The position numbers were made by a program, and so were the translations under genes. From assembly GCF_000027125.1 (NCBI RefSeq), contig NC_017626.1: DNA of 64,000 nt. One strand, given 5' to 3'. This stretch comes from Escherichia coli 042. GTDB lineage: Bacteria > Pseudomonadota > Gammaproteobacteria > Enterobacterales > Enterobacteriaceae. Below the pieces are notes generated by a model. It did no database searches and had not been told where the DNA came from. It saw only the letters and a list, made by a program, of their open reading frames with translations. Numbering within the stretch: position 1 is the stretch's first letter; every line of letters begins with the position of its first letter. This document shows positions 436-19,103 of the stretch, piece after piece.

Positions 436-1793
436 AGCAGACCTTACCGCTTGCACGCTGGCTGACTGCGCCACGCCCTGATGACACGCCCATTGCGTGG
501 CTGGACGAAAGCTCGTGGACACTGGGCGATTTGCGTCACGATGTCGCGCAACTTATCTGCCGCTTGCAGCAACAGCCGGGTGAACGCTGGGCGCTGTGCT
601 TTGAGAACAGTTATTTGTTTATCGTTGCCCTGCTTGCCACGCTACACGCCGGAAAAACGCCGGTGCTTCCGGGGCATAACCGTGTCATCCAGCTTAATGA
701 ACAACGTGAACTGTTCGATGGTGTACTTAGCGACAGCGATCTTAACTGGCAAGGTTCATTGCTGTTGGTAGCAAGTTCCCCACAAGTCGCGACACAATCA
801 TTCACCTTTGCCGCTATAGCGCCAGACGCTTATATCGAGCTATTTACCTCCGGTTCTACGGGGCAGCCAAAGCGGGTAATTAAACCTGTTCATTTGCTGG
901 ACCGTGAAGCAGAACTGCTGGCTGAACGATTAGGCGCACGTCTTGCCGGATGTCGTGTCGTCGGTTCCGTATTGCCGCAGCATCTGTACGGCCTGACTTT
1001 TCGCGTTTTCCTGCCAATGGCGCTGGGATTACCGCTGCACGCCGCCATGCTCTGGTATGTCGAACAGTTTGCCGCATTGAGTCACCAGCATCGCTATATC
1101 TTCATCAGCAGCCCGGCATTTTTGAAACGGCTGGATACCCAGCTTTCTCCGCCGCCCGTTCAGGTGCTTCTCTCTGCTGGCGGTGAGCTGCCGTGGCAGG
1201 ACGTAAAACACACCGCGAGCTGGCTGCGCGTCTGGCCTGATGAAATCTACGGCAGCACGGAAACCGGCGTCATTGCCTGGCGTTACCGCGAACAAGAGCA
1301 ACGCCGCTGGCTGCCCTTTCCAGGTATGCACTTCCAGGCCGAAGGTGAAGCATTTCGTCTCTTTTCACCGCTGATAGCGGAAGATAACGGCCTGTTACTC
1401 GATGATCTCTTGCAGTTTAGCCAGGACGGTCAGTTCCATCTGATGGGGCGTCGTGGGCGCATCGTTAAGATTGAAGAAAAACGTATGTCTCTGCAGGAAG
1501 TAGAACAACGTCTGCTGGCGCTGGACGGCATTCGCGAGGCGGCGGCAGTTCCCGTTACGCGCGGCGGGCGTCAGAGCATCGGCGTTTTGCTGGTGCTGGA
1601 TGACGAAGCTCGCCTGCAATGGCAGAACGGCGGCGGGCATAGCCAGGAAATGACCTGGCGGCGATTACTGCGCCCGACGCTGGAGCCAGTTGCTATTCCG
1701 CGTTACTGGCGCGTTATTGATGAAATGCCAGTAAACAGTATGAACAAGCGTGTCTATGCGCAATTACAGGAGTTATTTCATGAAGCCCCATGA
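432..1793 (+). CDS. apeH: AMP-dependent synthetase/ligase (acyl-ACP synthetase-like starter activating enzyme) of the APE cluster
   Basis: ORF 393-1793; likely start ATG 432 (MKQTLPL). Contains the adenylate-forming motif FTSGSTGQPKRV. Gene order matches the described ape cluster. Confidence 0.75.
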   Translation: MKQTLPLARWLTAPRPDDTPIAWLDESSWTLGDLRHDVAQLICRLQQQPGERWALCFENSYLFIVALLATLHAGKTPVLPGHNRVIQLNEQRELFDGVLSDSDLNWQGSLLLVASSPQVATQSFTFAAIAPDAYIELFTSGSTGQPKRVIKPVHLLDREAELLAERLGARLAGCRVVGSVLPQHLYGLTFRVFLPMALGLPLHAAMLWYVEQFAALSHQHRYIFISSPAFLKRLDTQLSPPPVQVLLSAGGELPWQDVKHTASWLRVWPDEIYGSTETGVIAWRYREQEQRRWLPFPGMHFQAEGEAFRLFSPLIAEDNGLLLDDLLQFSQDGQFHLMGRRGRIVKIEEKRMSLQEVEQRLLALDGIREAAAVPVTRGGRQSIGVLLVLDDEARLQWQNGGGHSQEMTWRRLLRPTLEPVAIPRYWRVIDEMPVNSMNKRVYAQLQELFHEAP

Positions 1794-2133
1794 AATCGAG
1801 CGCCATCAGGCACAAGCGAATCACCTTGAGATTGTTTTGCATCTCAGGGCAGATCTGTTCTGGTTTCGCGGCCATTTTGCCGTGCAGCCGTTACTCCCAG
1901 GAGTTGCACAAATCGACTGGGCGATGAGCTACGCGCTCACTCTGCTCGCGCCTGGCTGGCGTTTTCACTCTATTCAGAACATCAAATTCCAGTCCCCGTT
2001 GCTGCCGGACAACCGCGTCACGCTCACGCTTAACTGGCAGGAAGAACGCCAGATTCTGAGCTTTAGCTATCAGCGTCACGACGGTGACGCCCGCCACACC
2101 GCCAGTAGCGGGAAGATCCGCCTATGTCGGTAA
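1780..2133 (+). CDS. apeI: Hotdog-fold 3-hydroxyacyl-ACP dehydratase-like protein (FabZ/FabA-like)
   Basis: ORF 1750-2133; probable start ATG 1780 (MKPHEIERH) overlapping upstream stop. FabZ-like motif FRGHFAVQPLLPGVAQIDW. Confidence 0.65.
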   Translation: MKPHEIERHQAQANHLEIVLHLRADLFWFRGHFAVQPLLPGVAQIDWAMSYALTLLAPGWRFHSIQNIKFQSPLLPDNRVTLTLNWQEERQILSFSYQRHDGDARHTASSGKIRLCR

Positions 2134-3800
2134 ACTTTTCTCCCTGCGTGTTGATCCCCTGCTACAACCACGGCGCGATGATGCCGGGCGTGCTGGCGCG
2201 TCTTAAGCCATTTAATCTGCCCTGTATTGTAGTGGATGACGGCAGCGATGCCGCCACGCAACAGCAACTGGATAATCTGGTTGCCGAACAGCCTGGCGTG
2301 ACCTTAATTCGCCTGGCAGAAAACGCAGGCAAAGGCGCGGCAGTGATGCGTGGCTTACAGGCAGCGGCAGACGCGGGCTTCAGCCATGCGGTGCAGGTGG
2401 ATGCTGACGGTCAGCACGCGATTGAAGACATCCCTAAACTGCTGGCACTCGCTGAACAGCAGCCTGCGGCGCTGATCTCCGGCCAGCCGATTTACGATGA
2501 CTCCATCCCCCGCTCACGGCTGTACGGGCGCTGGGTCACCCACGTGTGGGTATGGATCGAAACGCTCTCCCTGCAACTGAAAGACAGTATGTGCGGCTTT
2601 CGCGTTTATCCGGTTGCGCCAACGCTGCAACTGGCAAAATACGCTACCATCGGCAAGCGGATGGATTTTGACACCGAAGTGATGGTGCGCCTCTACTGGC
2701 AGGGAAATACCAGTTATTTCGTGCCGACCCGCGTCACCTATCCGCTGGACGGGCTTTCGCATTTTGATGCCCTGAAAGATAACGTCCGCATCTCGCTGAT
2801 GCACACACGTCTGTTTTTCGGCATGTTGCCGCGTATTCCTTCACTGCTGATGCGCCACTCTTCCAGCCACTGGGCGCGGCAGAGCGAAGTGAAAGGGTTA
2901 TGGGGAATGCGCCTGATGCTGCTGGTCTGGCGTCTGCTGGGAAGAACTGCGTTTACCGCGCTGCTTTACCCGGTGGTGGGCGTCTACTGGCTCACCGCTG
3001 CTCGTGCACGTAAAGCGTCGCAAGACTGGCTCGCCCGTGTGCGCCAACAACAACCACAGGCAGCAAAACTCAACAGCTATCAGCATTTTCTACGTTTCGG
3101 CAACGCCATGCTCGACAAAATCGCCAGCTGGCGCGGCGAGCTGCAACTCGGGCGTGATGTGCTGTTTGCACCAGGCGCAGAAGCGGCACTTAACGTCAGC
3201 GATCCGCGCGGCAAATTGCTGCTGGCCTCGCATCTTGGCGATGTGGAAGTGTGCCGGGCGCTGGCAAAAATTCAGGGCTACAAAACCATTAACGCGCTGG
3301 TGTTTAGCGAAAACGCCCAACGCTTTAAACAGATAATGCAGGAGATGGCCCCGCAGGCAGGCATCAACCTGCTCCCGGTAACAGATATCGGCCCGGAAAC
3401 CGCCATCCTGCTGAAAGAGAAGCTGGATAACGGCGAATGGGTGGCGATTGTCGGTGACCGCATCGCCGTCAACCCGCAACGCGGCGGCGACTGGCGCGTC
3501 TGCTGGAGTCCGTTTATGGGCCAGCCTGCGCCTTTCCCACAGGGGCCGTTTATTCTTGCGTCTATTTTGCGCTGCCCGGTGAATCTGATTTTCGCCCTGC
3601 GCCAGCACGGCAAGCTGCATATTCACTGCGAAACCTTTGCCGACCCGCTGCTGTTGCCGCGTGGCGAACGCCAGCAGGCGCTGCAAAACGCTATCGATCA
3701 TTACGCCGCGCGTCTGGAACATTACGCGCTCCAGTCGCCCCTCGACTGGTTTAATTTTTTCGATTTCTGGCAACTGCCGGAAGTCCAGGACAAGGAGTAA
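2124..3800 (+). CDS. apeJ: Fused family-2 glycosyltransferase / lysophospholipid-type acyltransferase
   Basis: 558 aa ORF; N-terminal GT2-like region (CVLIPCYNHG ... IVVDDGSDA), long C-terminal acyltransferase-like domain. Confidence 0.75.
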   Translation: MSVNFSPCVLIPCYNHGAMMPGVLARLKPFNLPCIVVDDGSDAATQQQLDNLVAEQPGVTLIRLAENAGKGAAVMRGLQAAADAGFSHAVQVDADGQHAIEDIPKLLALAEQQPAALISGQPIYDDSIPRSRLYGRWVTHVWVWIETLSLQLKDSMCGFRVYPVAPTLQLAKYATIGKRMDFDTEVMVRLYWQGNTSYFVPTRVTYPLDGLSHFDALKDNVRISLMHTRLFFGMLPRIPSLLMRHSSSHWARQSEVKGLWGMRLMLLVWRLLGRTAFTALLYPVVGVYWLTAARARKASQDWLARVRQQQPQAAKLNSYQHFLRFGNAMLDKIASWRGELQLGRDVLFAPGAEAALNVSDPRGKLLLASHLGDVEVCRALAKIQGYKTINALVFSENAQRFKQIMQEMAPQAGINLLPVTDIGPETAILLKEKLDNGEWVAIVGDRIAVNPQRGGDWRVCWSPFMGQPAPFPQGPFILASILRCPVNLIFALRQHGKLHIHCETFADPLLLPRGERQQALQNAIDHYAARLEHYALQSPLDWFNFFDFWQLPEVQDKE

Positions 3801-3803
3801 AGG

Positions 3804-4226
3804 GTGCTTAACGATCCCCGATTTACCGCTGAAGTCGAGCTGACCATTCCCTTTCACGACGTCGATATGATGGGCGTGGCCTGGCACGGTAACTATTTTC
3901 GCTACTTTGAAGTGGCCCGCGAGGCGCTGCTCAACCAGTTCAATTACGGCTATCGGCAGATGAAAGAGTCCGGTTATTTGTGGCCAGTGGTCGATGCGCG
4001 GGTGAAATATCGCCACGCCCTCACCTTTGAGCAACGCATCCGCGTGCGTGCACATATCGAAGAGTTCGAAAACCGTCTGCGGATTGGCTATCAGATTTTC
4101 GATGCCGAAACGGGCAAACGCGCCACCACCGGATACACCATTCAGGTCGCGGTCGACGAGCAAAGCCGCGAACTGTGCTTTGTCAGCCCCGATATTTTGT
4201 TTGAACGCATGGGAGTCAAACCATGA
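3804..4226 (+). CDS. apeK: Hotdog-fold acyl-CoA/ACP thioesterase (4-hydroxybenzoyl-CoA thioesterase / YbgC-like)
   Basis: 140 aa ORF with GTG start; FHDVDMMGVAWHGNYFRYFEVAREALL resembles the YbgC/4HBT thioesterase core. Confidence 0.7.
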   Translation: MLNDPRFTAEVELTIPFHDVDMMGVAWHGNYFRYFEVAREALLNQFNYGYRQMKESGYLWPVVDARVKYRHALTFEQRIRVRAHIEEFENRLRIGYQIFDAETGKRATTGYTIQVAVDEQSRELCFVSPDILFERMGVKP

Positions 4227-4828
4227 AATTTTTACCACTGCTGGCGCTGCTGATTAGCCCGTTTGTGAGCGCCCTGAACCTGGACGATCTTCAGCAACGC
4301 TTTACCGAACAGCCGGTGATCCGCGCTCATTTCGATCAAACCCGGACGATTAAAGATCTGCCGCAGCCGCTACGATCTCAGGGCCAGATGTTGATCGCCC
4401 GCGACCAGGGGCTGTTGTGGGATCAAACCTCACCATTTCCCATGCAACTATTGCTGGACGATAAACGCATGGTGCAGGTGATCAACGGTCAGCCGCCGCA
4501 AATCATCACGGCAGAAAATAACCCGCAGATGTTCCAGTTTAACCACCTGCTGCGCGCGCTGTTCCAGGCCGATCGCAAAGTGCTGGAACAAAATTTCCGC
4601 GTCGAATTTGCTGACAAAGGCGAAGGCCGCTGGACACTGCGCCTGACGCCGACCACCACGCCGCTGGATAAAATTTTCAACACCATCGATCTCGCCGGGC
4701 AAACCTATCTGGAGAGCATTCAGCTTAATGATAAACAGGGCGATCGCACCGATATCGCTCTTACCCAACATCAACTGACGCCAGCGCAACTGACCGATGA
4801 CGAACGCCAACGTTTTGCCGCCCAGTAA
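4223..4828 (+). CDS. apeL: LolA-like periplasmic lipoprotein-carrier family protein
   Basis: 201 aa ORF with N-terminal signal peptide (MKFLPLLALLISPFVSALN); start overlaps apeK stop. Confidence 0.7.
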   Translation: MKFLPLLALLISPFVSALNLDDLQQRFTEQPVIRAHFDQTRTIKDLPQPLRSQGQMLIARDQGLLWDQTSPFPMQLLLDDKRMVQVINGQPPQIITAENNPQMFQFNHLLRALFQADRKVLEQNFRVEFADKGEGRWTLRLTPTTTPLDKIFNTIDLAGQTYLESIQLNDKQGDRTDIALTQHQLTPAQLTDDERQRFAAQ

Positions 4829-7115
4829 ACGCCCGGCGCTGTTATGGGGGATCGTCTGCCTGGTCATGGCGGCGGCGTTGCTGATCCTGTTGCCGCAATC
4901 ACGACTGAACAGTAGCGTGCTGGCTATGTTACCCAAACAGGCGATGGGCGATATTCCTCCAGCGCTGAATGACGGCTTTATGCAGCGTCTGGACCGCCAA
5001 CTGGTGTGGCTGGTCAGCCCCGGTAAAGAGGCTAATCCCAGGGTGGCTCAGGAGTGGCTGACGCTGCTGCAAAAATCCGCTGCGCTCGGCGACGTTAAAG
5101 GGCCAATGGATGCCGCCAGCCAGCAGGCGTGGGGAGCGTTTTTCTGGCAGCACCGCAACGGCCTGGTTGACCCCGACACCCGCGCGCGCCTGCAAAACGG
5201 CGGCGAAGCGCAGGCGCAGTGGATCCTCTCCCAGCTTTATTCTGCGTTCTCCGGGGTAAGCGGTAAGGAGCTGCAAAACGATCCGCTGATGTTAATGCGT
5301 GGCTCGCAGCTGGCGATGGCGAAAAACGGCCAGCGTTTGCGGCTGATGGACGGCTGGCTGGTGACGCAGGATCCCCAGGGCAACTACTGGTATCTGCTGC
5401 ACGGCGAACTGGCGGGATCGTCGTTTGATATGCAGCAAACCCACCAGCTCATCACGACCCTGAATACGCTGGAAAAGGATCTGAAAACGCGTTACCCGCA
5501 GGCGCAGTTGCTCTCGCGCGGCACGGTGTTTTACAGCGATTACGCCAGCCAACAGGCGAAGCAGGATATCTCCAACCTGGGCGTGGCAACGCTGCTGGGG
5601 GTGATATTACTGATTGTGGCGGTGTTCCGCTCTTTACGCCCATTGCTGCTTTGCGTGATTTCCATCGGCATCGGCGCGCTGGCGGGAACGGTCGCCACCT
5701 TGTTGATTTTCGGCGAATTACACCTGATGACGCTGGTGATGAGCATGAGCGTTATCGGCATTTCCGCTGACTACACGCTCTATTACCTCACCGAGCGGAT
5801 GGTGCACGGCAATGACGTTTCGCCGTGGCAAAGCCTGGCGAAAGTGCGCAATGCCCTGCTGCTGGCGCTGCTCACCACCGTGGCGGCGTATCTGATTATG
5901 ATGCTCGCCCCCTTCCCCGGCATTCGCCAGATGGCGATTTTTGCCGCCGTCGGGTTGAGCGCCTCCTGTCTGACCGTCCTGTTCTGGCATCCGTGGCTGT
6001 GCCGTGGCCTGCCGGTGCGTCCGGTTCCGGCGATGGCGCTGATGCTGCGCTGGCTGGCTGCGTGGCGGCGTAATAAAAAACTGTCGCTGGGTCTGCCCGT
6101 CGCGCTGGCGCTGTTTTCGCTGGCGGGGATGTCAATGCTGCGCGTCGACGACGATATCTCGCAGTTACAGGCGCTACCGCAGCATATTCTGGCCCAGGAG
6201 AAAGCCATTACCGCCCTGACCGGACAAAGCGTCGATCAAAAATGGTTTGTAGTTTACGGCGACTCTCCACAGCAAACATTGCGGCGGCTGGAGAAATTTA
6301 CCGCCTCGCTGGAGAATGCGAAAAAAGAGGGGCTTATCAGCAACTACCGCACCATTCCGCTGAACTCCCTGGCGCGGCAGGAGGAAGATTTACATCTGCT
6401 GAAAACGGCTGCCCCGACAGTAACAAAAGCACTGCAAAATGCCGGGCTGGCGGCAGTGAATCCGGATCTCAACGCCATGCCAGTGAAGGTCGATGAATGG
6501 CTGGCAAGCCCCGCCAGTGAAGGCTGGCGTCTGCTGTGGCTGACGCTGAAAAACGGCGAAAGCGGCGTACTGGTGCCGGTTGAAGGGGTTAAAAGTAGCG
6601 CGTTGTTGCAGGAAATCGCCAGCGATTACCCTGGCGGCATTGCCTGGGTTGATCGCAAAAGCACCTTTGATGAGTTGTTCGCACTTTACCGCTACGTCTT
6701 AACCGGTTTGTTGCTGGTGGCGCTGGCGGTGATTGCCTGCGGCGCAGTGGCCCGCCTCGGCTGGCGCAAAGGGCTTATCAGCCTGGTGCCTTCGGTACTT
6801 TCGCTGGGCTGCGGTCTGGCAGTGCTGGCGATGAGCGGGCAGGCGGTGAATCTCTTTTCGCTACTGGCGCTGGTGCTGGTGCTTGGCATCGGCATCAATT
6901 ACACGCTGTTTTTCAGTAATCCGCGCGGTACACCGTTAACTTCCCTACTGGCGATCACGCTGGCAATGCTCACCACCTTGCTGGCGCTGGGAATGCTGGT
7001 ATTCAGCGCCACCCAGGCCATCAGCAGTTTTGGCATTGTGCTGGTGAGCGGTATTTTCACCGCCTTCCTGCTTTCGCCGCTGGCTATGCCCGATAAAAAG
7101 AGAACAAAAAAATGA
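4797..7115 (+). CDS. apeM: MMPL/RND-superfamily membrane exporter
   Basis: 772 aa ORF with two blocks of multiple hydrophobic helices separated by large soluble domains (RND/MMPL topology). Confidence 0.75.
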   Translation: MTNANVLPPSKRPALLWGIVCLVMAAALLILLPQSRLNSSVLAMLPKQAMGDIPPALNDGFMQRLDRQLVWLVSPGKEANPRVAQEWLTLLQKSAALGDVKGPMDAASQQAWGAFFWQHRNGLVDPDTRARLQNGGEAQAQWILSQLYSAFSGVSGKELQNDPLMLMRGSQLAMAKNGQRLRLMDGWLVTQDPQGNYWYLLHGELAGSSFDMQQTHQLITTLNTLEKDLKTRYPQAQLLSRGTVFYSDYASQQAKQDISNLGVATLLGVILLIVAVFRSLRPLLLCVISIGIGALAGTVATLLIFGELHLMTLVMSMSVIGISADYTLYYLTERMVHGNDVSPWQSLAKVRNALLLALLTTVAAYLIMMLAPFPGIRQMAIFAAVGLSASCLTVLFWHPWLCRGLPVRPVPAMALMLRWLAAWRRNKKLSLGLPVALALFSLAGMSMLRVDDDISQLQALPQHILAQEKAITALTGQSVDQKWFVVYGDSPQQTLRRLEKFTASLENAKKEGLISNYRTIPLNSLARQEEDLHLLKTAAPTVTKALQNAGLAAVNPDLNAMPVKVDEWLASPASEGWRLLWLTLKNGESGVLVPVEGVKSSALLQEIASDYPGGIAWVDRKSTFDELFALYRYVLTGLLLVALAVIACGAVARLGWRKGLISLVPSVLSLGCGLAVLAMSGQAVNLFSLLALVLVLGIGINYTLFFSNPRGTPLTSLLAITLAMLTTLLALGMLVFSATQAISSFGIVLVSGIFTAFLLSPLAMPDKKRTKK

Positions 7116-7696
7116 TCAAACCCACATTCTGGCGAGCGTTCGCCCTGACCGCTACGCTTATCCTCACCGGCTGTAGCCACTCGCAACCGGAACAGGAAGG
7201 TCGCCCACAGGCGTGGCTGCAACCTGGCACGCGCATCACGCTGCCGGCACCAGGGATTTCGCCCGCCGTTAATTCCCAGCAACTATTGAGCGGCAGCTTC
7301 AACGGCAAAACCCAGTCTCTGCTAGTGATGCTTAACGCCGACGACCAGAAAATCACCCTTGCCGGGCTGTCGTCGGTCGGCATTCGTCTGTTTCTGGTGA
7401 CCTACGATGCGCAAGGGCTACGCGCCGAGCAATCCATCGTCGTCCCACAGTTGCCGCCCGCAAGTCAGGTGCTGGCTGACGTGATGCTTAGCCACTGGCC
7501 GATTAGCGCCTGGCAACCGCAACTCCCCGCTGGATGGACGCTTCGCGACAACGGTGACAAACGCGAACTGCGTAACGCCAGCGGCAAACTGGTCACGGAA
7601 ATCACCTATCTGAATCGCCAGGGAAAACGCGTGCCAATCAGCATTGAACAGCATGTCTTTAAATACCACATCACCATTCAATATTTAGGTGACTGA
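7112..7696 (+). CDS. apeN: Lipoprotein of unknown function (APE-cluster)
   Basis: 194 aa ORF; signal peptide with lipobox LILTGC; start overlaps apeM stop. Confidence 0.65.
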   Translation: MIKPTFWRAFALTATLILTGCSHSQPEQEGRPQAWLQPGTRITLPAPGISPAVNSQQLLSGSFNGKTQSLLVMLNADDQKITLAGLSSVGIRLFLVTYDAQGLRAEQSIVVPQLPPASQVLADVMLSHWPISAWQPQLPAGWTLRDNGDKRELRNASGKLVTEITYLNRQGKRVPISIEQHVFKYHITIQYLGD

Positions 7697-7697
7697 T

Positions 7698-8867
7698 ATG
7701 ATTTACATTTCCGCCGTCGGCATGATCAACGCCCTGGGAAATAACCTTGACGATATCGCAGCCAACCTGACTCGCGGTGTCGCTCCCGGCATGCGCCCGC
7801 GCGCAGGCTGGTTGCAGGGGCATCCGCAGGCGGTCCTGGCTGGCGTGGATGGCGAGCTTCCGGTTATCCCGGAAAAATTCGCTGCGCACCGCTCGCGCAA
7901 CAATCAGATCCTGCTGGCGGCGCTGGCGCAGATCCAGCCGCAGGTTGATGACGCTATTGCGAAATATGGCCGCGAGCGCATCGCGATTGTGCTTGGCACC
8001 AGCACCTCCGGCCTGCATGAAGGCGACACGCACGTTAACCTGCGCACCCACGGGCAGCCGAGCACCACGTGGCACTATGCACAACAAGAGCTCGGCGATC
8101 CGTCGCGTTTTCTCAGCCACTGGCTGGCGCTCGACGGCCCAGCTTATACCCTTTCAACCGCCTGCTCCTCCAGTGCCAGAGCGATGATCAGCGGGCGCAG
8201 GCTTATCGAGGCGGGGCTGGTCGATGCCGCCATTGTGGGTGGTGCAGACACCCTGAGCCGAATGCCGATTAACGGTTTTCACAGCCTCGAATCGCTCTCG
8301 CCAACCTTATGTCAGCCGTTTGGTCGTGACCGCGCGGGCATCACCATTGGCGAAGGTGCGGGGCTGATGCTGTTGACCCGCGAACCGCAGCCCATCGCCT
8401 TGCTGGGCGTCGGTGAATCGAGCGACGCTTATCATATTTCGGCCCCGCATCCACAGGGCGAAGGCGCAATTCGCGCCATTAACCAGGCGCTGGCTGATGC
8501 GCAGCTTACGCCGGATGAGGTGGGCTATATCAACCTGCACGGCACCGCCACACAACTCAACGACCAGATTGAATCGATGGTGGTAAACGCCCTGTTTGGC
8601 GAACGCGTACCGTGCAGCTCCACCAAACATTTGACCGGACACACGCTGGGCGCAGCGGGCATTACCGAAGCGGCAATCAGTATGTTGATCTTAGAGCGTG
8701 ATTTACCGCTGCCCGCTCAGGACTTCAGCCTGTCGCCGCGCGATCCCACGCTGCCACCGTGCGGCATTATCGAACAACCACAGCCGCTGGCACGTCCGGT
8801 GATCCTGTCCAATTCCTTCGCCTTTGGCGGCAATAACGCCAGCATTCTGCTCGGGAGGGTTTCGTGA
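7698..8867 (+). CDS. apeO: Beta-ketoacyl-ACP synthase (KS) of APE cluster
   Basis: ORF 7689-8867; ATG at 7698 follows upstream stop (7694-7696). Active-site-Cys context TLSTACSSS and HGTAT motif, thiolase fold. Confidence 0.8.
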   Translation: MIYISAVGMINALGNNLDDIAANLTRGVAPGMRPRAGWLQGHPQAVLAGVDGELPVIPEKFAAHRSRNNQILLAALAQIQPQVDDAIAKYGRERIAIVLGTSTSGLHEGDTHVNLRTHGQPSTTWHYAQQELGDPSRFLSHWLALDGPAYTLSTACSSSARAMISGRRLIEAGLVDAAIVGGADTLSRMPINGFHSLESLSPTLCQPFGRDRAGITIGEGAGLMLLTREPQPIALLGVGESSDAYHISAPHPQGEGAIRAINQALADAQLTPDEVGYINLHGTATQLNDQIESMVVNALFGERVPCSSTKHLTGHTLGAAGITEAAISMLILERDLPLPAQDFSLSPRDPTLPPCGIIEQPQPLARPVILSNSFAFGGNNASILLGRVS

Positions 8868-9328
8868 GCCACTATTTATCCCCCGGCGCTTATCTGCCCC
8901 ACGACGCGCCCATGTTACTGCTGGAAGAAGTGGTGAGCGTCAGCGATGACAGCGCGGTGTGCCGTGTAACGGTCTCGCCCAGTGGCGTACTGGCACCGTT
9001 TCTCGACCCGGACGGCAATCTCCCTGGCTGGTTTGCCCTTGAATTGATGGCGCAAACCGTCGGCGTCTGGTCTGGCTGGCATCGCCACCAGCAGGGCAAA
9101 AACAGTATTGAGTTAGGGATGGTACTGGGCGCACGTGAATTGCTTTGCGCCGCTGGCATTCTGCCCGCAGGCCAGACGCTGACCATTACCGTCAAACTCC
9201 TGATGCAAGACGATCGCTTCGGCAGTTTTGAGTGCAGCATCAACAACGGCACGGCAACGGGCCGCATTAACACCTTCCAGCCGACCGCGGAAGAACTTAC
9301 CACCCTGTTTCAACAAGGAGCGTCCTGA
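8864..9328 (+). CDS. apeP: Hotdog-fold dehydratase (FabA/FabZ-like)
   Basis: 154 aa ORF, GTG start overlapping apeO stop; LPHDAPMLLLEEV N-terminus typical of hotdog dehydratases. Confidence 0.65.
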   Translation: MSHYLSPGAYLPHDAPMLLLEEVVSVSDDSAVCRVTVSPSGVLAPFLDPDGNLPGWFALELMAQTVGVWSGWHRHQQGKNSIELGMVLGARELLCAAGILPAGQTLTITVKLLMQDDRFGSFECSINNGTATGRINTFQPTAEELTTLFQQGAS

Positions 9329-10059
9329 TGAGTCGTTCAGTTCTGGTTACTGGTGCCAGCAAAGGCATTGGTCGCGCCATCGCCTGCCAACTGGCGGCAG
9401 ACGGCTTTAATATTGGCGTTCACTATCACCGTGACGCCACAGGCGCTCAGGAAACGCTAAATGCCATTGTCGCCAACGGGGGTAACGGGCGTTTGCTCAG
9501 TTTCGACGTCGCAAACCGCGAACAGTGTCGGGAAGTGCTGGAGCACGAAATCGCGCAAAACGGTGCCTGGTACGGCGTGGTTAGTAACGCCGGGATCGCC
9601 CGCGATGCCGCTTTTCCGGCTTTAAGCGATGACGACTGGGATGCGGTGATCCACACCAATCTCGACAGTTTCTACAACGTTATTCAGCCGTGCATTATGC
9701 CGATGATCGGCACACGCCAGGGTGGACGCATCATCACGCTGTCCTCGGTTTCCGGCGTGATGGGCAATCGCGGACAGGTGAACTACAGCGCTGCCAAAGC
9801 CGGAATTATCGGCGCAACAAAAGCACTGGCTATCGAACTCGCGAAGCGCAAAATCACCGTCAACTGCATCGCGCCGGGGCTTATTGATACCGGGATGATC
9901 GAAATGGAAGAGAGCGCCCTGAAAGAGGCAATGTCGATGATCCCCATGAAACGCATGGGCCAGGCGGAAGAAGTTGCCGGGCTTGCCAGCTATTTAATGT
10001 CTGATATTGCGGGTTACGTCACCCGCCAGGTTATTTCCATCAACGGAGGGATGTTATGA
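9328..10059 (+). CDS. apeQ: 3-oxoacyl-ACP reductase (FabG-like SDR)
   Basis: 243 aa; Rossmann motif VLVTGASKGIGRAIA, catalytic YSAAK, NAG motif. Confidence 0.85.
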   Translation: MSRSVLVTGASKGIGRAIACQLAADGFNIGVHYHRDATGAQETLNAIVANGGNGRLLSFDVANREQCREVLEHEIAQNGAWYGVVSNAGIARDAAFPALSDDDWDAVIHTNLDSFYNVIQPCIMPMIGTRQGGRIITLSSVSGVMGNRGQVNYSAAKAGIIGATKALAIELAKRKITVNCIAPGLIDTGMIEMEESALKEAMSMIPMKRMGQAEEVAGLASYLMSDIAGYVTRQVISINGGML

Positions 10060-11285
10060 CACGTCGCGTAGTGATTACAGGAATGGGCGGCGTGACTGCC
10101 TTTGGTGAAAACTGGCAGGACGTTTCCGCGCGTCTGCTGGCGTATGAGAATGCAGTGCGCAAAATGCCGGAGTGGCAGGTCTACGATGGTCTGCACACCC
10201 TGCTTGGCGCGCCTGTTGATGATTTCACGCTACCGGAGCACTACACCCGCAAGCGTATCCGTGCGATGGGCCGCGTGTCGCAAATGTCGACCCGTGCCAG
10301 CGAGCTGGCGTTAGAGCAGGCAGGATTGATTGGCGATCCGATATTAACCAGCGGCGAAACGGGCATTGCGTACGGTTCATCGACCGGCAGTACCGGTCCG
10401 GTGAGCGAATTTGCCACCATGCTGACGGAAAAGCACACCAATAACATCACCGGCACCACCTATGTACAGATGATGCCGCACACCACCGCCGTTAATACCG
10501 GTCTGTTTTTCGGCCTGCGCGGGCGGGTGATCCCGACCTCCAGCGCCTGTACCTCCGGCAGCCAGGCGATCGGTTATGCGTGGGAAGCCATTCGCCACGG
10601 TTATCAAACGGTGATGGTTGCTGGTGGTGCCGAAGAGTTATGCCCTTCAGAAGCAGCGGTATTTGATACACTTTTCGCCACCAGCCAGCACAATGATGCG
10701 CCGAAAACCACACCTTCACCGTTCGATGAAAACCGCGACGGGCTGGTGATTGGTGAAGGCGCAGGTACGCTGATTCTTGAAGAACTGGAGCACGCCAAAG
10801 CGCGCGGCGCGACCATTTACGGTGAAATCGTCGGCTTTGCGACTAACTGCGACGCGGCACATATTACCCAGCCTCAGCGTGAGACCATGCAATATTGTAT
10901 GGAAAAATCGTTAAAAATCGCCGGGTTAAGTGCAAGTGATATCGGCTATATTTCGGCGCATGGTACGGCGACCGATCGTGGTGATATGGCAGAAAGTCTG
11001 GCGACAGCAACCATTTACGGTGATAATGTGCCGCTCTCCTCGCTGAAAAGTTATTTTGGTCATACGCTTGGTGCCTGTGGCGCGCTCGAAGCCTGGATGA
11101 GTCTGCAAATGATGCGCGAAGGTTGGTTTGCGCCTACGCTAAACCTGAATAAACCAGACCCGAACTGTGGCGCGCTGGATTACATCATGCATGAAGCCCG
11201 CAAGGTTGATTGTGAGTTTTTGCAGAGTAACAACTTTGCCTTTGGCGGCATTAATACATCCATCATCATTAAACGTTGGCCCTGA
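10056..11285 (+). CDS. apeR: Beta-ketoacyl-ACP synthase I/II-like (FabB/FabF family)
   Basis: 409 aa; active-site Cys context SSACTSGSQAIG, HGTAT and GHTLGACGA motifs. Confidence 0.85.
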   Translation: MTRRVVITGMGGVTAFGENWQDVSARLLAYENAVRKMPEWQVYDGLHTLLGAPVDDFTLPEHYTRKRIRAMGRVSQMSTRASELALEQAGLIGDPILTSGETGIAYGSSTGSTGPVSEFATMLTEKHTNNITGTTYVQMMPHTTAVNTGLFFGLRGRVIPTSSACTSGSQAIGYAWEAIRHGYQTVMVAGGAEELCPSEAAVFDTLFATSQHNDAPKTTPSPFDENRDGLVIGEGAGTLILEELEHAKARGATIYGEIVGFATNCDAAHITQPQRETMQYCMEKSLKIAGLSASDIGYISAHGTATDRGDMAESLATATIYGDNVPLSSLKSYFGHTLGACGALEAWMSLQMMREGWFAPTLNLNKPDPNCGALDYIMHEARKVDCEFLQSNNFAFGGINTSIIIKRWP

Positions 11286-11286
11286 T

Positions 11287-11874
11287 ATGTATCGGATAGT
11301 TCTGGGGAAAGTTTCGACCTTAAGCGCAGCTCCACTGCCACCGGCTTTACGCGATCAAGCACCGCAAGGTCCACGACGCGAACGCTGGCTGGCGGGGCGT
11401 GCATTACTTTCGCACACGCTTTCCCCGCTACCGGAGATCATCTATGGCGAACAAGGCAAACCGGCATTCGCGCCGGAAACGCCGCTATGGTTCAACTTAA
11501 GCCATAGCGGTGACGATATCGCCCTGCTGTTGAGCGATGAAGGCGAAGTCGGCTGCGATATCGAAGTGATTCGCCCGCGCGCCAACTGGCGCTGGCTGGC
11601 GAACGCCGTGTTCAGCCTCGGGGAACACGCTGAGATGGACGCCGTGCATCCCGATCAGCAACTGGAAATGTTCTGGCGCATCTGGACGCGCAAAGAAGCC
11701 ATCGTTAAACAGCGTGGCGGCAGCGCCTGGCAAATCGTCAGCGTAGACAGCACCTATCACTCATCACTGTCAGTCAGCCATTGTCAGCTAGAAAATTTAA
11801 GCCTGGCGATCTGCACCCCTACCCCCTTTACGCTCTCCGCCGACAGTGTGCAATGGATCGATTCAGTTAACTGA
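11287..11874 (+). CDS. acpT: 4'-phosphopantetheinyl transferase AcpT
   Basis: ORF 11167-11874; ATG 11287 gives a 195 aa product (MYRIVLGKVSTLSAAPLP...) matching E. coli AcpT as recalled; immediately downstream of the ape genes. Confidence 0.85.
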   Translation: MYRIVLGKVSTLSAAPLPPALRDQAPQGPRRERWLAGRALLSHTLSPLPEIIYGEQGKPAFAPETPLWFNLSHSGDDIALLLSDEGEVGCDIEVIRPRANWRWLANAVFSLGEHAEMDAVHPDQQLEMFWRIWTRKEAIVKQRGGSAWQIVSVDSTYHSSLSVSHCQLENLSLAICTPTPFTLSADSVQWIDSVN

Positions 11875-11898
11875 TCCGCCCACCCGACTGCCCATCTA

Positions 11899-11912
11899 TT
11901 GATCCAGAACAG
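11899..11912 (+). promoter_or_regulatory. FNR-like half-palindrome (TTGAT-N4-AACAG) upstream of nikA
   Basis: ttgatccagaacag read in the acpT-nikA intergenic region; nik is known to be anaerobically induced via FNR. Imperfect match. Confidence 0.3.
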
Positions 11913-11919
11913 GTAATCA

Positions 11920-11947
11920 GTATGACGAATACTTAAAATCGTCATAC
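11920..11947 (+). promoter_or_regulatory. NikR operator (GTATGA-N16-TCATAC)
   Basis: Exact dyad gtatga cgaatacttaaaatcg tcatac read directly, about 40 bp upstream of the nikA start; matches the known NikR recognition pattern. Confidence 0.8.
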
Positions 11948-11984
11948 TTATTTCCGCCATCTATTTTAATCCATTGGGGTTACC

Positions 11985-13559
11985 ATGTTCTCTACACTCC
12001 GCCGCACTCTATTTGCGCTGCTGGCTTGTGCGTCTTTTATCGTCCATGCCGCTGCACCAGATGAAATCACCACCGCCTGGCCGGTGAATGTCGGGCCACT
12101 AAACCCGCACCTTTACACGCCTAACCAGATGTTCGCCCAGAGCATGGTTTATGAACCATTGGTGAAATATCAGGCAGACGGTTCGGTGATCCCGTGGCTG
12201 GCAAAAAGCTGGACCCATTCGGAAGATGGCAAAACCTGGACCTTCACCCTGCGTGATGACGTGAAATTCTCCAACGGCGAACCGTTTGATGCAGAGGCGG
12301 CGGCAGAAAACTTCCGCGCAGTGCTCGATAACCGTCAACGTCACGCCTGGCTGGAGCTGGCAAACCAGATTGTTGATGTCAAAGCACTCAGTAAAACAGA
12401 GCTGCAAATCACCCTGAAAAGCGCCTACTATCCTTTCCTGCAAGAACTGGCCCTGCCACGCCCTTTCCGTTTTATCGCCCCCTCGCAGTTTAAAAACCAT
12501 GAAACCATGAACGGAATTAAAGCGCCGATTGGCACCGGGCCGTGGGTTTTGCAGGAATCGAAACTGAATCAGTACGATGTCTTCGTCCGTAACGAAAACT
12601 ACTGGGGCGAAAAGCCGGCGATTAAGAAGATCACTTTTAACGTGATCCCGGACCCGACTACCCGCGCGGTGGCGTTTGAAACTGGCGATATTGACCTGCT
12701 GTACGGAAACGAAGGGTTATTACCGCTCGATACCTTCGCCCGCTTTAGCCAGAACCCGGCTTACCACACCCAACTGTCACAGCCGATCGAAACCGTGATG
12801 CTGGCGCTCAATACCGCCAAAGCCCCCACCAACGAGCTGGCAGTACGTGAAGCTCTTAATTACGCGGTAAACAAAAAATCGCTGATTGATAACGCGTTGT
12901 ATGGCACCCAGCAGGTCGCCGACACCCTGTTTGCTCCTTCTGTGCCCTATGCCAACCTCGGCCTGAAACCGCGCCAGTACGATCCGCAGAAAGCGAAAGC
13001 GTTGCTGGAAAAAGCCGGTTGGACGTTGCCTGCGGGCAAAGACATCCGCGAGAAAAATGGTCAGCCGCTGCGCATTGAACTGTCGTTCATCGGCACCGAT
13101 GCGTTAAGCAAATCGATGGCGGAAATCATTCAGGCTGATATGCGCCAGATTGGCGCAGATGTCTCACTGATTGGCGAAGAAGAGAGCAGTATCTATGCTC
13201 GTCAGCGCGACGGTCGTTTTGGCATGATTTTCCATCGCACCTGGGGCGCGCCATACGATCCACACGCCTTCCTGAGTTCAATGCGCGTACCGTCGCACGC
13301 TGATTTCCAGGCACAGCAAGGATTAGCCGACAAGCCGCTGATTGATAAAGAGATCGGCGAAGTGCTGGCAACCCATGACGAAACGCAACGTCAGGCGCTG
13401 TATCGCGACATTCTGACCCGTCTGCATGACGAGGCGGTTTATCTGCCTATCAGTTACATCTCAATGATGGTGGTATCAAAACCGGAGCTGGGTAACATCC
13501 CCTACGCGCCGATCGCCACCGAAATTCCGTTCGAACAGATTAAACCGGTGAAACCTTAA
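11985..13559 (+). CDS. nikA: Periplasmic nickel-binding protein NikA
   Basis: 524 aa ORF with signal peptide; family-5 solute-binding protein; first gene of the nik operon. Confidence 0.95.
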
Positions 13560-14499
13560 TGTTGCGTTACGTATTACGCCGCTTTCTGCTGCTGATCCCG
13601 ATGGTGCTCGCCGCCTCGGTGATCATTTTTCTGATGCTGCGCCTCGGCACCGGCGACCCGGCGCTCGATTATCTGCGTCTGTCTAACCTGCCGCCGACGC
13701 CGGAGATGCTGGCCTCTACACGCACCATGCTGGGGCTGGATCAGCCGCTGTATGTCCAGTACGGCACCTGGTTGTGGAAGGCGCTGCATCTTGACTTTGG
13801 TATCTCATTCGCCAGCCAACGCCCGGTGCTGGACGATATGCTGAACTTCCTGCCCGCCACGCTGGAACTTGCAGGTGCCGCGCTGGTATTAATTCTGCTC
13901 ACTTCCGTACCGCTCGGTATCTGGGCGGCGCGCCATCGCGATCGTCTGCCGGATTTCGCCGTACGTTTCATCGCGTTTCTCGGCGTGTCGATGCCCAACT
14001 TCTGGCTGGCGTTTTTGCTGGTGATGGCGTTTTCGGTATATCTGCAATGGCTACCCGCGATGGGCTACGGCGGCTGGCAGCACATCATTTTGCCTGCGGT
14101 TTCCATTGCCTTTATGTCGCTGGCGATTAATGCACGGCTACTGCGCGCCAGCATGCTGGACGTCGCCGGTCAGCGTCACGTGACCTGGGCGCGGCTACGC
14201 GGCCTGAATGACAAACAGACCGAGCGTCGTCATATTCTGCGCAATGCCTCGCTGCCGATGATCACCGCCGTGGGGATGCACATTGGCGAACTGATTGGCG
14301 GGACGATGATTATCGAAAACATCTTTGCCTGGCCGGGCGTCGGGCGCTATGCGGTGTCGGCGATTTTTAACCGTGACTATCCGGTGATCCAGTGCTTTAC
14401 GCTGATGATGGTGGTGGTTTTTGTGGTCTGTAATTTGATTGTTGATTTGCTCAACGCCGCGCTGGACCCGCGCATTCGTCGTCATGAAGGAGCCCACGC

Positions 14500-14503
<4 letters not shown>
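13559..14503 (+). CDS. nikB: Nickel ABC transporter permease NikB
   Basis: 314 aa polytopic permease; translationally coupled to nikA. Confidence 0.95.
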
Positions 14504-17306
<2,803 letters not shown>

Positions 17307-17504
17307 CACCTCCCAACGCGCCGTTATTTCCTGACGGCGCAGTAGACTTCTGCCAAATATCGACTCACGTCACATTTTTTTGATCACGATTTAGTCCCCT
17401 AAAATGTGAGACGCTTCGATCCTCTTTTTCGCCTGTTCACCTACTATACGCTTGAAGTTGTCCATGATTGTCCATAGACAACTGTAAATGTTCAGGTGCG
17501 CGCC

Positions 17505-18251
17505 ATGAAATCATTGAGTAAGTCGTCACAAATACCGCTCTATCAACAAGTGGTGGAGTGGATAAGAGAAAATATTTATACCGGGGATCTGGTGGAAGAC
17601 GATCGCATTCCTTCGGAATACCAGATTATGGATATGCTGGAAGTGAGTCGGGGAACCGTTAAAAAAGCTGTCGCCCAACTGGTAAAACAAGGCGTGTTGA
17701 TTCAGGTCCAGGGGAAGGGAACATTTGTCAAAAAAGAGAACGTGGCATATCCGTTAGGTGAAGGATTATTGTCATTCGCGGAATCGCTGGAAAGCCAGAA
17801 AATACACTTTACCACTGAAGTTATTACGTCACGGATTGAACCGGCTAATCGTTATGTGGCAGAGAAATTAAGAATAACGCCCGGTCAGGATATTCTTTAC
17901 CTTGAGCGTTTACGTTCAATTGGTGATGAAAAAGCGATGCTGATAGAGAACCGTATCAATATTGAGCTATGCCCCGGCATCGTGGAAATCGATTTTAATC
18001 AACACAATTTATTTCCAACAATAGAAAGTTTGTCGAAAAGAAAAATTCGTTACTCGGAAAGTCGCTATGCCGCGCGATTAATTGGTAATGAACGCGGTCA
18101 TTTTTTAGATATCTGTGAAGATGCACCCGTTTTGCATCTGGAGCAATTAGTCTTTTTCTCCCGAGAGTTACCCGTTGAGTTTGGCAACGTCTGGTTAAAA
18201 GGAAATAAATATTATCTGGGCACCGTGCTGCAACGGCGGGAATTGAGTTAA
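17505..18251 (+). CDS. GntR-family transcriptional regulator (HTH + UTRA effector domain)
   Basis: ORF 17496-18251; HTH segment EYQIMDMLEVSRGTVKKAVAQLVKQGVL; precedes the PTS genes. Confidence 0.75.
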   Translation: MKSLSKSSQIPLYQQVVEWIRENIYTGDLVEDDRIPSEYQIMDMLEVSRGTVKKAVAQLVKQGVLIQVQGKGTFVKKENVAYPLGEGLLSFAESLESQKIHFTTEVITSRIEPANRYVAEKLRITPGQDILYLERLRSIGDEKAMLIENRINIELCPGIVEIDFNQHNLFPTIESLSKRKIRYSESRYAARLIGNERGHFLDICEDAPVLHLEQLVFFSRELPVEFGNVWLKGNKYYLGTVLQRRELS

Positions 18252-18275
18252 ATACACTTTTTTATGAGGAATAAA

Positions 18276-18749
18276 ATGCAAGGCATACAGTTTCAGGAAA
18301 ATTATATTCAACGACTTCCGGCAGGGTTAAGCGTTGAACAGATCATCCGTCAGTTAGCGCAACCGTTGGTTGCTGCTGAGCTGGTGGTCCCTGATTTTGC
18401 CGATCACGTACTGAAACGTGAGGCGACGTACCCAACGGGGCTGCCTACCGAACCACCGTGCGTCGCCATTCCGCACACGGACCATAAATATGTCAGGCAC
18501 AATGCAATTGCCGTCGGCATCCTTCCGGAACCGGTAGAGTTTGCCGATATGGGCGGCGATCCTGACCCCGTACATGTCAGGGTGATTTTTTTGCTCGCCT
18601 TAAGTGAAAGTAATAAACAATTAAATGCCCTGGGCTGGATTATGGAGATGATTCAGGATACGCCCTTTATGCGCGCCCTGCTTACGATGGAAACAACAGA
18701 AATACACACAGTAATCTTAAACAAAATGAAAGAACGAGGTGAAATATGA
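18276..18749 (+). CDS. PTS EIIA component (fructose/mannitol/galactitol type)
   Basis: ORF 18264-18749; ATG 18276 has a GAGGA RBS; phosphorylatable His context AIPHTDH. Confidence 0.75.
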   Translation: MQGIQFQENYIQRLPAGLSVEQIIRQLAQPLVAAELVVPDFADHVLKREATYPTGLPTEPPCVAIPHTDHKYVRHNAIAVGILPEPVEFADMGGDPDPVHVRVIFLLALSESNKQLNALGWIMEMIQDTPFMRALLTMETTEIHTVILNKMKERGEI

Positions 18750-19027
18750 GTCAAACCATTTTATTTGTCTGCGCCACGGGTATAGCCACATCCACGGCGG
18801 TAACAGAAAAAGTCATGGAATATTGTAAAGAGCACGGTCTTAACGTCAATTATTCCCAAACCAACGTTGCCTCTTTACCTGGAAATACTGACGGCGTAGC
18901 ACTGGTAGTCTCAACGACTAAAGTGCCTTATGAACTCGACGTCCCGGTGGTTAACGGCTTGCCGATTATTACCGGTATTGGCGAAGAGAAAGTACTGGCG
19001 CAAATTGTTTCGATCCTTAAAAAGTAA
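18746..19027 (+). CDS. PTS EIIB component (galactitol type, Cys-phosphorylated)
   Basis: 93 aa; N-terminal ILFVCATGIATS motif typical of GatB-like EIIB. Confidence 0.8.
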   Translation: MSQTILFVCATGIATSTAVTEKVMEYCKEHGLNVNYSQTNVASLPGNTDGVALVVSTTKVPYELDVPVVNGLPIITGIGEEKVLAQIVSILKK

Positions 19028-19103
19028 TTAATAATAATTAATTTCAACCCACTCCATCAGGCGCTAACGCGAGGTGCGCTCTCGCCTGAAAAAGAGGTTT
19101 ATT

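Follow-up and report, generated by a model that had tools for sequence, protein, structure and literature searches.

The stretch of DNA analyzed here (the window) comprises 64,000 nucleotides of the Escherichia coli 042 chromosome (contig NC_017626.1), and its beginning is occupied by a gene cluster for aryl polyene (APE) pigment synthesis. Within this cluster, an open reading frame (ORF) of 558 codons, running from ATG to TAA, spans positions 2124..3800 of the plus strand exactly, as given by both the ORF list and the translation, and corresponds to the gene apeJ (558 amino acids plus the TAA stop codon). The coding sequence (CDS) encodes two domains on one polypeptide, all features of which lie on the plus strand: a GT-A/GT2 glycosyltransferase domain at 2124..2858 (aa 1-245) and an acyltransferase domain of the LpxL/PatA type, related to PF03279, at 2868..3797 (aa 249-558). 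Pfam and NCBIfam scans of the neighboring genes recovered the ApeI-like, ApeP-like, LolA, MMPL, DUF3261, ketosynthase (KS) and FabG2 families characteristic of an APE cluster, and the gene set around apeJ includes KS and chain length factor (CLF) proteins, acyl carrier proteins (ACPs), ApeP, FabG2, and the export genes of the LolA, MMPL and DUF3261 families. A first-pass annotation made from the sequence had placed the ORF inside an APE cluster, and these neighbors confirm that placement.

The identity of the gene was established by two comparisons. The ORF is identical, base for base, to the CDS WP_000115628.1 of E. coli 118UI (RefSeq annotation by the Prokaryotic Genome Annotation Pipeline, PGAP; locus L001, 10001-11677), where it is named “glycosyltransferase family 2 protein”. 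In addition, the two published quantitative PCR primers for apeJ of E. coli CFT073 (c1194), by which identity with c1194 was judged, have their sites at 3287-3307 (+) and 3415-3434 (-), each with 0 mismatches, while the number of matches expected by chance is 0. Because these primers match inside the ORF without mismatch, the ORF at 2124..3800 is, at the sequence level, the published apeJ; it also holds the position of this gene, between apeI and apeK. The ApeJ proteins described from E. coli CFT073 and Xenorhabdus doucetiae represent the same gene, with the same position between apeI and apeK and the same “glycosyltransferase/acyltransferase” annotation, and no difference in substance from the published ApeJ was found.

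Functional information on ApeJ comes from two organisms. In E. coli, ApeJ was listed as a “glycosyltransferase/acyltransferase”, and a strain with an apeJ deletion lacks the main peak of the mature APE lipid, keeps part of the pigment and accumulates late intermediates (Johnston 2021). In Xenorhabdus, the structure of the APE lipid was solved, and the APE was found esterified to O-6 of N-acetylgalactosamine (GalNAc)-1-phosphate-diacylglycerol (Grammbitter 2020). The backbone of this lipid consists of glycerol, phosphate and GalNAc, with a conjugated C26:5 acyl chain at sn-2 plus a saturated acyl chain, and deletion of apeJ in Xenorhabdus leads to the accumulation of a diacyl-glycerol-3-phosphate (diacyl-G3P) intermediate, acyl-cFA-G3P. 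According to the proposal made there, ApeJ adds GalNAc in a first reaction and acylates it with the ApeE-bound APE in a second one (Grammbitter 2020). In the parts of these publications that were consulted, the activities of ApeJ are assigned from annotation and the lipid profiles of mutants. Both the glycosyltransferase/acyltransferase fusion and the glycolipid-bound nature of the product are already known from this literature; the suggestion of the first-pass annotation that the polyene is transferred onto a glycosylated or lipid anchor, giving a glycolipid-bound pigment, is supported by the Xenorhabdus lipid and by the loss of the mature APE lipid from the E. coli deletion strain.

The N-terminal domain is predicted to be a lipid-phosphate glycosyltransferase of the Dpm1/GtrB/ArnC/PpgS-like class. 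PF00535 (Glycos_transf_2) matches residues 8-130 with E = 5e-20 and 72.5 bits against a gathering cutoff of 23.3, and this match, together with the exact coordinates of the ORF, agrees with the earlier description of a single 558 aa ORF with a GT2-type N-terminus. The top NCBIfam match of the region is PpgS, the polyprenyl-phospho-GalNAc synthase (1.5e-14), which at 54 bits stays under its equivalog-level cutoff of 370, as does ArnC with 25 bits against a cutoff of 529. A phmmer search of the full ApeJ protein against the sequences of the PDB returned only GT2 relatives (DPMS, ArnC and GtrB), leaving the C-terminal half unmatched, and a profile built from homologues that contain the glycosyltransferase alone gave DPMS (6.4e-12), GtrB (1.2e-11) and ArnC (1e-10) as the best PDB matches, the matches to these three enzymes spanning 6e-12 to 2e-10. 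When the full AlphaFold model was compared with solved structures by Foldseek, the top glycosyltransferase matches were again ArnC, GtrB and DPMS at E ~1e-10, followed by the retaining enzyme GpgS at 1.4e-8. By sequence and predicted fold, residues 1-245 are thus closest to the Dpm1/GtrB/ArnC clade.

The donor-binding motifs of this clade are retained in ApeJ, as judged by alignment and by conservation among 45 fused homologues reaching down to ~30% identity. The DDGS motif (D38-D39-G40-S41; 2235..2246), predicted to bind the nucleotide sugar, aligns with “VVDDDS” of DPMS and “IDDGS” of ArnC; D39 is kept by 45/45 homologues, and either D or N is found at position 38. The DADGQH motif (D93-A-D95-G-Q97-H98; 2400..2417), the predicted DXD site for metal and diphosphate, aligns with “DADLQH” of DPMS and “DADLQN” of ArnC, and its residues D93, D95, Q97 and H98 are all invariant in the same 45/45 proteins. 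The DDGS and DADxQH motifs are common to ApeJ and the enzymes DPMS/Dpm1, GtrB, ArnC and PpgS, whose chemistry is the transfer of a sugar onto a lipid phosphate monoester, yielding a sugar-1-phosphate-lipid. These enzymes use polyprenyl phosphate, whereas the acceptor of ApeJ is probably diacylglycerol phosphate, and ApeJ possesses an acyltransferase domain in the place where the polyprenyl-phosphate glycosyltransferases carry a C-terminal transmembrane hairpin.

Alignment to the solved glycosyltransferases ends near residue 120-136, and only the donor-binding half of the domain matches the polyprenyl-phosphate enzymes. The acceptor half (aa 120-245; 2483-2858) shows invariant residues of its own (P129, R132, R136, G158, R160 and Y206), with D154, D183, S212, D219 and N220 nearly invariant, and these family-specific positions are candidate determinants of a non-polyprenyl lipid-phosphate acceptor. 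Since DPMS, GtrB, ArnC and PpgS, the best matches by sequence and fold, are all polyprenyl-phosphate glycosyltransferases, it could be argued that the GT2 domain charges polyprenyl phosphate with a sugar to be used elsewhere, e.g. at the periplasmic face, and that the acyltransferase acts on a different substrate. This is quite improbable. The region of aa 120-245 does not align in sequence to the polyprenyl-phosphate enzymes, ApeJ has none of their C-terminal transmembrane helices, and no enzyme of the cluster, GT-C-type or other, could consume a polyprenyl-phosphate sugar; moreover, the final Xenorhabdus product keeps the sugar-1-phosphate-lipid bond, and the accumulation of diacyl-G3P in the Xenorhabdus apeJ deletion is what would be expected if diacyl-G3P were the acceptor.

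The assignment of the C-terminal domain required a less direct route. Pfam scans of aa 201-558 and aa 251-558 at E <= 10 gave no acyltransferase match, PF03279 included; a match to VpsR in this half (E = 0.13-0.19) was dismissed as meaningless. The NCBIfam model of PatA, the phosphatidylinositol mannoside acyltransferase, matched ApeJ with E = 9e-4, scoring 18 bits where its cutoff is 209. When residues 251-558 were used as the query, stand-alone proteins of 310-315 aa were recovered that are 45-47% identical to the domain over its entire length (E ~1e-80) and carry PF03279, the “bacterial lipid A biosynthesis acyltransferase” family. Among the aligned members of the C-terminal family scanned one by one, 13/26 match PF03279 (best E = 1e-12), and distant fused homologues match it weakly, so that homology to this family is reached via intermediate sequences. 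In the AlphaFold model, the domain is predicted to adopt the alpha/beta acyltransferase fold of the LpxL/LpxM/PatA family.

The catalytic motif of this family could also be located. A profile of the C-terminal family run against the PDB gave LpxM at E = 0.11, beside spurious matches to DARPins, and served only to fix the register of the motif: the putative catalytic HX4E motif of ApeJ (H370-L-G-D-V-E375; 3231..3248) is in register with “HFGTWE” of LpxM, for which E127A is a substitution of the catalytic residue according to the title of PDB entry 5knk. H370 is present in 45/45 homologues, and position 375 is acidic in all of them (Glu in 39, Asp in 6). The D445-R446 pair (3456..3461) likewise shows no variation, either among the fused homologues (45/45) or among the C-terminal ones (26/26). 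In LpxM, the aligned counterpart of D445 is the Asp of “ilpDh”, and the pair may play a role in the acyltransferase core. Because transitive homology, predicted fold and catalytic motif agree, the C-terminal half of ApeJ is assigned as an LpxL/PatA-type acyltransferase on sequence and modeling evidence. The large acyltransferase-like domain named in the first-pass annotation is borne out by the same three observations, and the proposal made there, which was to be given up if the C-terminal half lacked an acyltransferase fold, survives, as an LpxL/PatA-type fold is predicted.

Given that the C-terminal half of the E. coli protein falls under every curated family threshold, one of the two domains could be viewed as a degenerate, non-catalytic remnant serving merely as a scaffold or membrane anchor. 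This explanation was excluded as extremely improbable because the catalytic residues are invariant in both domains, and the 45 homologues in which they are invariant extend to ~30% identity. Furthermore, both domains are predicted with high confidence, the full-length AlphaFold model having a mean predicted local distance difference test score (pLDDT) of 90.0 and a predicted template modeling score (pTM) of 0.79, and each domain also exists as a conserved stand-alone gene.

The position of the domain junction is defined by a Methylobacter genome, in which the GT2 and the acyltransferase are separate genes with a 4-nt overlap, located at the same place of an APE-type cluster. The stand-alone GT2 (244 aa) aligns to residues 8-245 of ApeJ with 55% identity, and the stand-alone acyltransferase (315 aa) to residues 249-558 with 45% identity. 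Because these alignments end at 245 and begin at 249, the junction is the Ser-Ser-Ser linker at residues 246-248 (2859..2867); the domain boundary, which the earlier annotation had marked as worth determining, is thus placed at aa 245/249. Model confidence is low at ~aa 245-260, coinciding with the linker. The acyltransferase domain opens with a long, moderately hydrophobic or amphipathic helix (aa 256-291; 2889..2996), which is predicted as one helix with Arg residues embedded in it and reaches a maximum Kyte-Doolittle mean of ~1.4. Residues 263-293 are the sole stretch outside the acyltransferase core in which the 19-residue Kyte-Doolittle mean is >= 1.2, and the modeled helix probably associates with the membrane, either spanning it or lying on it, as do its counterparts in LpxM and PatA.

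At E <= 1e-30, an exhaustive homologue search yielded 991 cluster representatives. Fused proteins of 540-600 aa aligned from end to end account for more than 100 of these, and forms consisting of the glycosyltransferase only (~250 aa) or the acyltransferase only (~310-335 aa) also occur. The fusion of the two domains is far beyond chance. Named sources of homologues include Vibrio, Enterobacter, Paraferrimonas, Anaerobiospirillum and a verrucomicrobial Opitutaceae strain. The fusion state also varies between lineages across the whole apeH-apeI-apeJ block: E. coli has three separate genes; the Methylobacter locus (L002, 7564-10948) encodes an ApeH-ApeI fusion of 569 aa followed by the split GT2 and acyltransferase; and on a metagenome contig (L005, 10001-13558) a single protein of 1,185 aa, located inside a complete APE cluster, unites the ApeH AMP-ligase, the ApeI dehydratase, the GT2 and the acyltransferase. 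Because the fusion state of these adjacent genes varies, their functions appear to be tightly coupled. As a separate observation on the Methylobacter locus, the APE-like genes are followed (10938-19043) not by apeK-R but by genes for an aromatic ammonia-lyase (PF00221), an aminotransferase-class V protein and a 1,391-aa protein resembling a nonribosomal peptide synthetase with adenylation, peptidyl carrier protein and condensation domains (A-PCP-C), which points to a different starter unit or to a product of hybrid type.

The closest functional parallels to the acyltransferase domain are offered by two groups of enzymes: PatA, whose acylation target is a sugar O-6 in a glycan linked to a phosphoglycerolipid, and the LpxL-family enzymes, which use acyl-ACP donors. 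Taking the domain assignments together with the published product, we consider it likely that ApeJ is a membrane-associated bifunctional enzyme responsible for the last two steps of APE-lipid assembly, i.e. the addition of a sugar to diacylglycerol phosphate and the subsequent addition of the APE to this sugar. Both steps would take place on the cytoplasmic side of the inner membrane. In the first step, the GT2 domain (aa 1-245) would move the sugar from a uridine diphosphate (UDP)-N-acetylhexosamine (GalNAc in Xenorhabdus) to the phosphate monoester of the diacyl-G3P made by ApeD, by the chemistry that DPMS, GtrB, ArnC and PpgS carry out on polyprenyl phosphates, to give glycosyl-1-phosphate-diacylglycerol. 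In the second step, the LpxL/PatA-type domain (aa 249-558) would use the proposed His370/Glu375 dyad to move the finished APE acyl group from ApeE to a hydroxyl of the sugar, which is O-6 in the Xenorhabdus lipid. The fusion would allow the product of the first step to be passed straight to the second.

The relatives of each domain fit these steps, as a Dpm1-like GT2 forms the type of bond found in GalNAc-1-phosphate-diacylglycerol, and the acylation of O-6 in the Xenorhabdus lipid matches that of mannose O-6 on phosphatidylinositol mannoside by PatA. The likeness to PatA of mycobacteria (PDB 7ojt, 5f2t and 5oce) has its limits: identity to the C-terminus of ApeJ is only 15-18%, and PatA is not fused to a glycosyltransferase and uses an acyl-CoA donor, whereas an acyl-ACP donor is proposed for ApeJ. 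The two-domain architecture, the folds as predicted, the conservation of motifs in both domains, the junction and the identity with apeJ come from the present analysis; the product structure and the mutant phenotypes are taken from the literature; and from both we infer which sugar is donated and to which acceptor in E. coli, which step comes first, and that the acyl group is carried by ACP and not by coenzyme A (CoA).

The similarity of the ApeJ C-terminus to LpxM is also consistent with a different acceptor. If the domain were a lipid A-type secondary acyltransferase, the pigment of E. coli would reside on lipid A or a lipid A-like glucosamine lipid and not on a GalNAc-phosphoglycerolipid; Johnston et al. 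brought up lipid A as a possible acceptor. We regard this as improbable. The highly similar Xenorhabdus cluster yields a GalNAc-phosphate-glycerolipid and no lipid A derivative; the GT2 domain, though fused or adjacent to the acyltransferase in every context examined, would be left without a role; and enzymes of the PF03279 fold act beyond lipid A, as is the case for PatA on phosphoinositol mannoside. The comparison with LpxL, LpxM and LpxP themselves (PF03279; LpxM in PDB 5kn7/5knk) shows that the E. coli ApeJ domain has no PF03279 match of its own, and that laurate or myristate chains are transferred by these enzymes, in contrast to an aryl polyene and a likely acceptor other than lipid A for ApeJ.

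The presence of two acyltransferases in the cluster (the PF01553-type ApeD and the ApeJ C-terminus) and of two ACPs, neither transfer having been reconstituted, leaves room for an exchange of roles, in which the conjugated fatty acyl chain, or an ordinary one, is installed by the C-terminus of ApeJ, and attachment of the APE falls to ApeD. The chance of this is remote, since the Xenorhabdus apeJ deletion still makes a lipid with the conjugated acyl chain at sn-2 but no APE-bearing lipid, and ApeD belongs to the PlsC/GPAT family of glycerol-acylating enzymes, while the ApeJ domain resembles the sugar-acylating PatA.

Several points weigh against the assignment of both terminal steps to ApeJ as outlined above. 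Alone, E. coli ApeJ is below every Pfam and NCBIfam acyltransferase threshold, and its C-terminal assignment goes through transitive homology and predicted structure. As the acceptor half of the GT2 domain has no alignment, its acceptor is deduced from mutant data and not from homology. We did not find a biochemical assay of either ApeJ activity in the literature. A further point is stereochemical. Enzymes of CAZy family GT2, including the Dpm1/GtrB/ArnC class, invert the anomeric center. Therefore, UDP-alpha-GalNAc should yield a beta-linked phosphate. In the preprint on the Xenorhabdus APE lipid, the linkage is called alpha, with an anomeric doublet of doublets of J = 7.6 and 2.8 Hz (J(H1,H2) = 2.8 Hz); the reported alpha anomer conflicts with an inverting glycosyltransferase class. 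For E. coli, the lipid structure is unsolved, and the APE anchor was described as “still not known” by Johnston et al.

One way to read this conflict is that the glycosyltransferase domain of ApeJ is a Dpm1-like GT2 whose acceptor has been switched from polyprenyl phosphate to diacylglycerol phosphate, a lipid of the phosphatidic acid type, and that, if the alpha linkage is correct, the bond is formed with net retention, or else that the sugar-phosphate enters the lipid by a pathway different from that proposed. This is a tentative idea that we hold to be unlikely. If true, net retention would be unprecedented in the otherwise inverting Dpm1-like clade, and the combination of an alpha product with an inverting class is the only element of the system that could surprise a specialist.

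ApeJ would turn the carrier-bound polyene into a membrane lipid, a role already described in the literature, and is thus a logical point at which to block or re-engineer the display of the pigment. The boundary at aa 245/249 can be used for the design of separated constructs, and D93/D95 and H370/E375 are specific residues to mutate. A modest increment over the published description is provided by the evidence on folds, the conserved motifs, the precise position of the junction, and the variants in which the domains are split or further fused; the PatA analogy for the acylation of O-6 of the sugar and the structural (modeled) and evolutionary support for both domains being catalytically competent are part of it too.

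The other genes of the cluster were placed in the window by transferring coordinates from the identical E. coli locus as annotated by PGAP. Upstream of and outside the window, this annotation has apeA-F, encoding a lipoprotein, a methyltransferase, the CLF, the acyltransferase ApeD and the two ACPs. The gene apeG ends at 435 and is cut by the start of the window, its PGAP start falling 146 nt upstream. It is followed by apeH (432-1793) and apeI (1780..2133, plus strand), a 3-hydroxyacyl-ACP dehydratase matching PF22818 (ApeI-like, 2e-40). The first 10 nt of apeJ are shared with the end of apeI, and the two genes are probably translationally coupled. Starting 4 nt past the apeJ stop, apeK (3804..4226, plus strand) encodes a 4HBT-type thioesterase (PF13279, 1.1e-16; “acyl-CoA thioesterase” in PGAP). 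The remainder of the cluster consists of apeL (4223-4828), apeM (4797-7115), apeN (7112-7696), apeO (7698-8867), apeP (8864-9328), apeQ (9328-10059) and apeR (10056-11285), and acpT and then nikA lie 3' of apeR. The gene acpT is reportedly linked to this island (De Lay and Cronan 2006), a connection on which no conclusion here depends.

Three ORFs that overlap apeJ were rejected as genes. The largest, of 382 aa with a GTG start (3090-4238, minus strand), runs antisense over the apeJ/apeK boundary, matches no Pfam family and most likely arose by chance within GC-rich coding DNA; the two smaller ones have no family match. The apeJ ORF itself is found with 100% identity in many E. coli strains and is present in 823/5,426 complete E. 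coli genomes (~15%), always on the chromosome. All but one of the 824 matching E. coli records are at >=95% identity. This implies that the APE island located between yhhT and acpT, too, occurs in only ~15% of complete E. coli genomes.

Finally, four of the mechanically derived ORFs, at 11167-11874, 7689-8867, 1750-2133 and 393-1793, are longer than the annotated genes acpT, apeO, apeI and apeH, whose annotated starts are at 11287, 7698, 1780 and 432, respectively. In the case of acpT, the alignment with the NCBIfam AcpT profile does not begin until residue 41 of the long ORF, in agreement with the shorter start right behind the stop codon of apeR.

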